From positions 5,749 through 69,748 of the IMG/VR virus record IMGVR_UViG_3300021185_002518: 64,000 bases of DNA, one strand, 5' to 3'. Position numbers and translations under genes: made by a program. The notes under the pieces were generated by a model. That model saw only the letters and a list, made by a program, of their open reading frames with translations. It ran no database searches and was not told the origin of the DNA. Positions 849 to 1,013 of the stretch are shown piece by piece. Each line of letters begins with the position of its first letter. Positions within the stretch are counted from its first letter, which is position 1. The stretch comes from a virus.

Positions 849-1013
849 AAGAGAGGGAGGGCAGGTGTGGTTCTTCTCCGAGTTTCGGTTGAGATACTGT
901 CGTCTCAGCCGTAATGTTACCTTTCGAGCAACCTGTGACTGTACTTAGATACTGTCTACTACCGAGTTTCGGAACTCGCTTTATCCTGCCGTTAAACCAC
1001 CCAAGCCTCTCTT
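849..1013 (-). ncRNA. structured ncRNA candidate C (terminal stem, pseudoknot, internal repeats)
   Basis: AAGAGAGG/CCTCTCTT closing stem; crossing pairs GTGGTT/AACCAC and GGCAGG/CCTGCC; several hairpins; GC-richer than flanks; no credible ORF. Confidence 0.6.

Follow-up and report, generated by a model that had tools for sequence, protein, structure and literature searches.

The window analysed here, 64,000 nucleotides of the virus record IMGVR_UViG_3300021185_002518 (positions 5,749 to 69,748), is most of a 69.7-kb complete viral record from marine samples. Its large terminase shares 45% identity with the terminases of Flavobacterium, Cellulophaga and Tenacibaculum podophages; with the one from an uncultured virus the figure is 62%. 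The minus strand carries the genes at 1-4700, and within this region a small zinc-finger gene (1582-1791) precedes a gene-free stretch (793-1581), which is followed by a promoter-like repeat present in six copies in the genome. The last part of the gene-free stretch is unit C (849-1013), the subject of this report. Unit C is a genuine folded RNA gene of a marine phage, and it belongs to a family of RNAs, here called scaffolds, that combine a near-constant core with hairpin inserts at two sites. A Pfam search of ten window proteins gave no RNA-related enzyme.

The RNA of unit C is most likely read on the minus strand, because the flanking early genes lie on that strand and because in one relative, L020 (L numbers denote related viral loci), a tRNA-Asp on the same strand as the unit begins 14 nt past its CCUGUC. 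Four RNA-library runs were compared with the window; their contigs are unstranded and cannot show RNA ends. Contigs on unit C come from X15 (821-927 and 898-1013) and X17 (855-932 and 904-1060), with 0-1 differing letters, and contigs of X17 and X18 contain the core of relatives joined to a module like that of the neighbouring unit B. X17 contigs cover 841-1560 and no part of 301-840 or 1561-2100; the uncovered parts prove nothing and are not used as a sign of enrichment.

A preliminary description of this DNA had proposed a structured RNA delimited by a closing stem, with crossing complementarities, two pairs of direct repeats and a GNRA hairpin. A computation of inverted and direct repeats over 840-1020 recovers every one of these elements (Table 1; coordinates are on the plus strand), and the proposed unit is borne out by compensatory changes in its closing stem, P1, among homologs. 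Unit C falls in no known Rfam family: an Rfam 15 covariance-model search gives nothing on it. With all 4227 models at the gathering score the whole window has 0 matches, and relaxing the threshold to E up to 10 on 700-1900 brings matches only around a T-arm-like stretch of the neighbouring unit A (1238-1343), with none in 849-1013. The same search on 21 loci of relatives, long forms included (13 at E up to 5 and 8 at E up to 1), finds nothing on the scaffold; the sole match in the latter eight is the tRNA-Asp of L020. ARAGORN finds 0 tRNA or tmRNA genes in the window, and the Rfam tRNA and tmRNA models have no match on unit C.

A family of scaffolds with two insertion sites

Sixty-eight related viral loci were collected via the zinc-finger protein, and blastn across them shows unit C to be conserved at its two ends only, the middle varying from locus to locus. 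A 15-base core word retrieved 81 viral stretches, and requiring both core motifs left 40 distinct units, the window's included. The order of parts is identical in all 40: P1, 2-3 nt, GGGUGGU, site 1, AAC-GGCAGG, AUAAAGC with an A-rich run, site 2, GAACCACA, CCUGCC, 1-2 nt and P1'. Each of the 40 has the GGGTGGT-like word upstream, with no more than one change. Eleven units served to build a covariance model (R1), which gives 41 matches in the 81 sources and aligns over its full length with the window's unit (81.2 bits, E 1.8e-21), its only match in the 64 kb; it matches 26 of the 67 zinc-finger loci searched. The scaffold element is therefore accessory and single-copy. The window's unit has the make-up of a family member, in which the sequences of P1 and of the site-2 stem are free to vary.

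Metagenomes were scanned with a pattern comprising AAC-GGCAGG-AUAAAGC and CCUGCC only, the words GAACCAC[A/G] and GGGTGGT being left outside it. Among the 120 matches listed, GAACCAC[A/G] is nevertheless present in 118, the other two being chance matches, and a GGGTGGT-like word lies within 220 nt upstream in 113 (exact in 111). In the 113 complete units among these matches, P1 has at least 6 bp in 110, and there are at least 39 different P1 helices and at least 68 site-2 inserts. On contig 3300030098_004514, identity to the window is 60% for the neighbouring 121-aa protein and 78% for the zinc-finger protein, and the core differs at only 3 positions in the listed motifs; by sequence comparison, the core is more conserved than the neighbouring genes. 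A separate scan of bacterial genome contigs gave at least 120 matches, and none of those listed resembles the scaffold. A looser pattern run over 401 sampled Bacteroidota genomes gives 1 match against 1 for the reversed control, which is the chance level. Against cultured phages, blastn of 780-1900 has no match, and with a long-form unit as query blastn returns, at E up to 10, only a 24-nt chance match in a Pseudomonas phage. Scaffolds of this family are frequent in uncultured marine podophages whose hosts are of the Flavobacteriia type.

Site 1 lies between GGGUGGU and AAC-GGCAGG, and site 2 between AUAAAGC-AAAA and GAACCACA. Site 1 is empty in 11 of the 40 viral units, the window's included, where only a UUAAC or UAAAC linker is found; in the other 29 it holds a hairpin insert of 30-140 nt whose closing stem differs from unit to unit. 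Site-2 inserts range from 2 to 104 nt, the window's being the longest. In most of the 37 that were folded the ends pair after an A-rich leader of 3-4 nt, and their folding energies have a mean z of -2.36 (n = 37, including two wrongly delimited rows, L020 and the first L045 unit), with 23 of 37 below -1.5.

The window's site-2 insert is itself composite. The sequence CCGAAACUCGG is self-complementary save for a central AAC, and in six units (L026, L029, L045b, L030, L011 and L020) two copies of it flank a CUCA or CUUA loop, forming a single hairpin with an AAC/AAC internal loop. In the window a 72-nt module (890-961) sits at the tip of this hairpin; it is missing from L011, L020, L045, L029, L026 and L030, where its flanks abut, and its homologs occupy site 1 in two loci, L009 and L039, and site 2 in L124. 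The two pairs of direct repeats must accordingly be read otherwise than as the repeated loop sequences of the preliminary description: the 11-nt repeats pair with each other as opposite strands of a single self-complementary helix, and the 10-nt repeats, the copies of GACAGUAUCU, belong to two small hairpins of the 72-nt module.

Exchange extends beyond this insert. A 54-nt piece of unit A (1364-1417) is 90-100% identical in L011, L014, L048, L056 and L069, and occupies scaffold site 1 or 2 in L011, L014, L056 and L069. A hairpin that stands free between units in the window (1213-1247) is the site-2 insert of L281, L340 and L374. At each site the hairpin modules are unrelated in sequence, and the same modules turn up on other scaffolds or, in relatives, as hairpins standing alone. 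These distributions indicate that hairpin modules are shuffled among different scaffolds.

The long-form site-1 inserts (L027 and others) begin AGCGCGUGAGAYGUGU and finish AUCUUACUCACUUGGCAG; their GUGAG can pair with CUCAC, and GUAAG/CUUAC in L009 is a compensatory change. Read together, the preceding GGGUGGU and the start of such an insert give AGGGUGGUAGCGCG.

Table 1. Elements of unit C in the window, on the plus strand and as parts of the minus-strand RNA
Feature	Position	Strand	Remark
Closing stem, 8 bp (AAGAGAGG / CCTCTCTT)	849-856 / 1006-1013	+	100% complementary
GGCAGG / CCTGCC	860-865 / 985-990	+	100% complementary
GTGGTT / AACCAC	867-872 / 995-1000	+	Part of inverted repeat I1
Exact 11-nt direct repeat CCGAGTTTCGG	878-888 and 962-972	+	Minus-strand reading is the CCGAAACTCGG of the preliminary description
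Exact 10-nt direct repeat AGATACTGTC	892-901 and 947-956	+	Minus-strand reading is GACAGTATCT
GAAA-capped hairpin GTTGCTC-GAAA-GGTAAC	916-932	-	
P1 5' strand (RNA AAGAGAGG)	1006-1013	-	100% complementary to 849-856
Invariant GGGUGGUU	995-1002	-	5' strand of crossing helix A (GUGGUU) and of the pairing with ACC-U-GCCC
Linker UAAC	991-994	-	Site 1, empty in the window
Helix B 5' strand GGCAGG	985-990	-	Pairs with 860-865
Invariant AUAAAGC	978-984	-	Columns of alignment A4 invariant; L007 has AUAAAGU
Site-2 insert, 104 nt	874-977	-	Stem P2 and nested modules
CCGAAACUCGG copy 1	962-972	-	5' strand of P2 helix with AAC/AAC internal loop
CCGAAACUCGG copy 2	878-888	-	3' strand of the same P2 helix; minimum-energy fold pairs both copies
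72-nt inner module	890-961	-	Two small hairpins with GACAGUAUCU (947-956, 892-901) and GAAA hairpin 916-932
Invariant GAACCACA	866-873	-	3' strand of helix A (AACCAC 867-872) and 1-nt linker; invariant in A4
Helix B 3' strand CCUGCC	860-865	-	Shared with the competing GGGUGGU pairing
P1 3' strand (RNA CCUCUCUU)	849-856	-	Adjoins T-run of the next early promoter motif

Base pairing in the core

Covariation was counted on alignment A4, which holds 35 short-form units; three (L080, L337 and L374), whose linker is one base longer, were omitted from 38. A MAFFT alignment of the 40 units (A3) and a model-made alignment (A2) put the 5' element in the wrong place where a unit has a site-1 insert, so that counts come from anchored extraction and from A4 instead. 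In A4, 90.8% of cells are paired against 81.7% in shuffles, none of 500 shuffles reaching the observed value, and pairing falls to 36-49% when the partners are slid. P1 has changes on both sides in 6 of 7 pairs, and over the 40 viral units it forms every time, with 23 different helix strings. The site-2 stem P2 has changes on both sides in all 6 of its pairs. In helix B (GGCAGG/CCUGCC) 2 of 6 pairs are compensated, both in the single sequence L075 (AGUAGG/CCUACU), where the changes in the 3' strand are compensated in the GGCAGG strand and are still wobble-compatible with GGGUGGU; L020 has one G.U pair in this helix. A search for variants of helix B, with B itself left unspecified, returned only known units and no new covariation. 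On these comparisons P1, P2 and helix B are supported as base-paired. A GGG/CCC extension of P1 was considered and dropped, as it is not kept in L075.

Along the plus strand the complementary words follow one another as GGCAGG, GTGGTT, CCTGCC and AACCAC, which is a crossing order. The preliminary description expected the pairings to be kept in homologs, and this holds with compensatory changes for P1 and GGCAGG/CCUGCC; GUGGU/ACCAC (helix A) is complementary in 40 of 40 viral units but invariant. That two invariant words of ~8 nt should be complementary by chance is unlikely (by our own estimate roughly 1 in 100 to 1 in 300). The linker of the short forms is 5 nt, 6 in a few and never less, a minimum that would fit the minimal span for a knot.

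The GGGUGGU word, itself invariant in A4, can also form a nested helix with ACC-U-GCCC, and this shares its 3' strand with helix B. Constrained folding of the 35 units gives mean energies of -25.6 kcal/mol for the form with B and the helix-A strands free, -27.8 for the nested alternative and -29.3 without constraint; helix A (5-6 bp) would add about -5 to -6 kcal/mol to the B form, before any knot penalty. Knotted form and nested alternative are thus predicted to be about equal in energy. As to the preliminary choice between a pseudoknot and a mutually exclusive switch, the crossing complementarity is there in every viral unit, a nested fold of about equal energy would compete with the knotted form, and a static knot and a switch would each fit. 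If core bases serve two helices, they would be expected not to vary.

Interpretation and alternatives

We hold with moderate confidence that unit C is a stable, trans-acting non-coding phage RNA in which a knotted, possibly bistable core is the chassis for exchangeable hairpins; its structure is established in part, and its function we infer. The invariant GUGGU would pair with the invariant ACCAC inside the loop closed by helix B, giving a compact knotted core. Its 3' strand AACCACACCUGCCC could also pair with GGGUGGU in another register, and core bases engaged in two helices could not drift. Such a core may serve as a nuclease-resistant, possibly switchable chassis. The RNA would be excised from an early multi-RNA transcript, and its hairpin modules, offered to factors of the host or of the phage, might act as a decoy or as the sponge suggested in the preliminary description; unit C would then not be a cis regulator of one particular gene.

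Several observations weigh against this reading. All 6 pairs of helix A are invariant in A4, with zero covariation, and the invariance of the core could stem partly from recent spread among related phages and not from selection. RNAalifold prefers the nested GGGUGGU/ACC-U-GCCC helix, and in 34 of the 35 units this alternative lies below the B form when no knot bonus is counted. Geometric reasoning suggests that the 11 short-form viral units, with 1 nt between ACCAC and CCUGCC and an L1 of 5 nt, leave little steric room for an intramolecular knot. As to the strand, the plus strand of unit C folds better (z = -3.04) than the minus strand (z = -1.43), so that folding energy alone is poor support for unit C on the sense strand, and a wobble-pair test of the strand call is weak (16 G.U against 10 A.C cells). 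The RNA-library match rests on unstranded contigs, for which DNA carry-over is possible.

Unit C might be a cis element of a 3' end, in which P1 over the pre-folded core, together with the U-run, ends the early transcription unit or shields the 3' end from exonucleases, with no trans role. This would suit the T-run and promoter-like motif found directly after the P1 3' strand in the window and in many viral units, and the 8 of 40 units that begin just past the stop codon of a small open reading frame (ORF). We consider it unlikely: a terminator scan of 400-2000 calls no minus-strand site at the 3' end of the unit (849-860), P1 encloses a 149-nt interior, which with a T-run common to the promoter repeat is not the make-up of a terminator, and the copy of that repeat near 1850 has its T-run with no hairpin. 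The units of L020, L026, L014, L030, L054 and L093 are moreover followed by a tRNA or further RNA units with no U-run, and a terminator leaves unexplained an invariant core of ~45 nt with two insertion sites. A bistable switch, in which GGCAGG and GGGUGGU compete for AACCACACCUGCCC and a ligand, a protein or an RNA 3' end picks the fold, would account for the three near-isoenergetic folds over 35 units, the choice made by RNAalifold, the frozen state in A4 of bases that sit in two helices, and the L075 changes that satisfy both partners. To this we likewise attach little probability, as no one class of gene and no expression platform goes with the unit downstream, where a promoter, a tRNA or other RNA units follow, the replacements seen at the two leading G of GGGUGGU (GCG, GAG, UGG) go uncompensated, and no database match suggests a ligand. 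By analogy with the T-box bulge, unit C could instead catch RNA 3' ends in trans, UGGU binding the ACCA end of host tRNAs or of the phage's CCA-tailed unit A, with AACCAC as the built-in competitor and GGCAGG/CCUGCC as the second switch state. Such a catcher, which we think improbable, would link, sequester or report tRNA ends while carrying hairpin cargo; we know of no RNA-only tRNA-end sensor or decoy in phages.

A self-cleaving ribozyme, or a processing signal cutting the multi-RNA early transcript into units, would match the architecture of small ribozymes (a small invariant knotted core, variable stems and optional inserts) and the placement among other RNA units and tRNAs. It seems very unlikely, since no Rfam 15 ribozyme model matches unit C and no RNA ends are seen inside the unit in the RNA-library contigs, which however cannot show ends. 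If GUGGU and ACCAC paired between molecules, dimers, rings or larger RNA-only assemblies might display the modules in many copies. The tightness that geometry suggests for the short forms and the single-stranded state of both helix-A partners in the nested fold with B would agree with this, and a 2026 preprint, in the part available, reports cages and filaments made solely of RNA that short phage RNAs assemble into (10.64898/2026.07.01.735769). We rate this, too, as highly doubtful: 29 of the 40 viral units have a long L1 and no steric problem, and nothing in the analysis points to oligomers. Most improbable to us is an element acting as DNA only, either a miniature mobile repeat or a hot spot of recombination, with cassettes exchanged by way of its conserved arms. 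Such an element would account for the mosaic swapping of modules at two fixed points, each bordered by invariant words, and for the inverted termini formed by P1; yet P1 covaries freely (23 helix strings in viral and at least 39 in metagenome units), as expected of a base-paired transcript rather than a terminal repeat bound by protein, the inserts are under selection to be hairpins, there is one copy per genome, and the sequence is present in RNA libraries.

Over more than 150 environmental sequences a core of ~45 bases stays near-constant, its closing stem drifts, two sites take dozens of unrelated hairpins, and the same hairpins recur in nearby tRNA-like scaffolds; this looks like a natural RNA-module display system in a variable early region. 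Phages often keep counter-defence genes in such regions. If it is a display system, the family would be a new route for phages to handle host factors by RNA and not by protein, and a ready-made scaffold for RNA engineering; the frozen core with two competing pairings is also a compact test case for the evolution of bistable RNAs. The family may matter ecologically as well, since it is frequent in marine metagenomes and turns up in marine RNA libraries.

Comparison with known RNAs and neighbouring units

Phage genomes carry many small RNAs of unknown use, often beside tRNA genes, and the tRNA clusters of T4 and T5 include small stable RNAs of unknown function. Like these, unit C is phage-encoded and non-coding, lies among tRNA or tRNA-like genes on the early strand and is probably co-transcribed with them and cut out; unlike them, the scaffold family has a defined, putatively knotted core, two insertion sites and a distribution in marine podophages of Flavobacteriia-type hosts, and it is not known to be related to them in sequence or structure. 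With manA (RF01745), GOLLD (RF01998), ROOL (RF03087) and IMES-1 to -4 it shares a phage or marine origin, an ornate structure whose pseudoknot is putative in unit C, a frequent position beside tRNAs and abundance in RNA libraries, but it has no covariance-model match to them at permissive E and unit C is far smaller than GOLLD or ROOL. Twister, pistol, hatchet and hammerhead ribozymes also have a small invariant core, with a pseudoknot that is putative in unit C, variable helices and optional inserts, and are frequent in phage and marine sequence; none of their models matches unit C.

The layout of the core, a G-rich 5' segment, a stem, the partner of that segment inside the loop of the stem, and the stem set beside a terminal helix, is that of the tRNA elbow (D-loop/T-loop) and of the acceptor-arm pseudoknot of viral tRNA-like structures. 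A likeness to tRNA is found nearby as well, as unit A has a true T-arm after GGUGGUU and, in one RNA-library contig, a CCA-like end. Unlike tRNA, unit C has no cloverleaf, anticodon arm or T-loop sequence, and 1-2 unpaired bases separate B from P1. In the T-box antiterminator, the conserved AGGGUGGNACCGCG binds the NCCA end of tRNA. The AGGGUGGUAGCGCG of the long-form units, whose UGGU would pair with an ACCA word that is internal here, resembles this consensus, a resemblance and no more. The scaffolds differ from T-boxes in that stem I and the specifier are missing and no gene for an aminoacyl-tRNA synthetase follows, and short forms such as the window's have no AGCGCG; the Rfam T-box model has no match, and there are no amino-acid-related genes downstream.

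The core strings are in none of the papers searched, and topic searches likewise returned nothing on the unit C RNA. The scaffold family is uncatalogued, and its scaffold-plus-cassette design is unusual. PMC10690425, in the part available, reports 8,495 candidate RNAs from IMG/VR, and the family may be among those that it leaves unnamed.

The promoter-like repeat that follows unit C (795-850, with a further copy at 1805-1850) consists of TTTTTACAAACTAAATACGA, a variable spacer and GGATAATATATA. The T-run after unit C is part of it, and as that run lies inside the six-copy repeat, unit C adjoins the next promoter without a spacer.

Unit B (1013-1215) has its own closing stem and terminates with AUCUUACUCAC, which is the 3' flank of long-form site-1 inserts. 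Its core (1058-1190) and the insert at site 1 of the first L045 scaffold unit (L045:4944-5187) share 73% identity, and from this similarity unit B looks like the 5' half of a long-form scaffold minus the GGCAGG...CCUGCC core.

In unit A the T-arm lies at 1308-1324, preceded by GGUGGUU. An X17 contig (record 20, depth 24) spans 1299-1358 and has, ahead of 1299 on the plus strand, 24 additional letters (23 T followed by G). Taken on the minus strand, the same contig has unit A RNA ending ...CAUCCGC-A-C, followed by an untemplated C and an A-run, which makes an ACCA end after an acceptor-like strand. Unit A thus seems to undergo tRNA-like maturation by addition of CCA, followed by A-tailing in the cell or during library making. 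In L014 (5650-6000) and L030 (5628-6010) an RNA-like stretch of ~300-350 nt follows the scaffold unit. It contains CUGACGAG and has at its 3' end a canonical T-arm (UGAGG-UUCGAUU-CCUCA) and an acceptor-like strand; no Rfam family matches it.

A small basic 45-aa ORF ending ..KVYGIWYE was considered as a fixed partner of the scaffold and set aside: it lies directly upstream of only 8 of 40 viral units and of 10 of 108 metagenome units among the matches listed, and its homolog in the window (2158-2295) is far from unit C. This lysine-rich ORF of 45-46 aa overlaps, in another frame, the end of an ORF of 51-58 aa in L023 (4650-4851), L026 (5102-5300) and, on the minus strand, the window. Third-position changes between the loci suggest that the small ..KVYGIWYE frame is coding.

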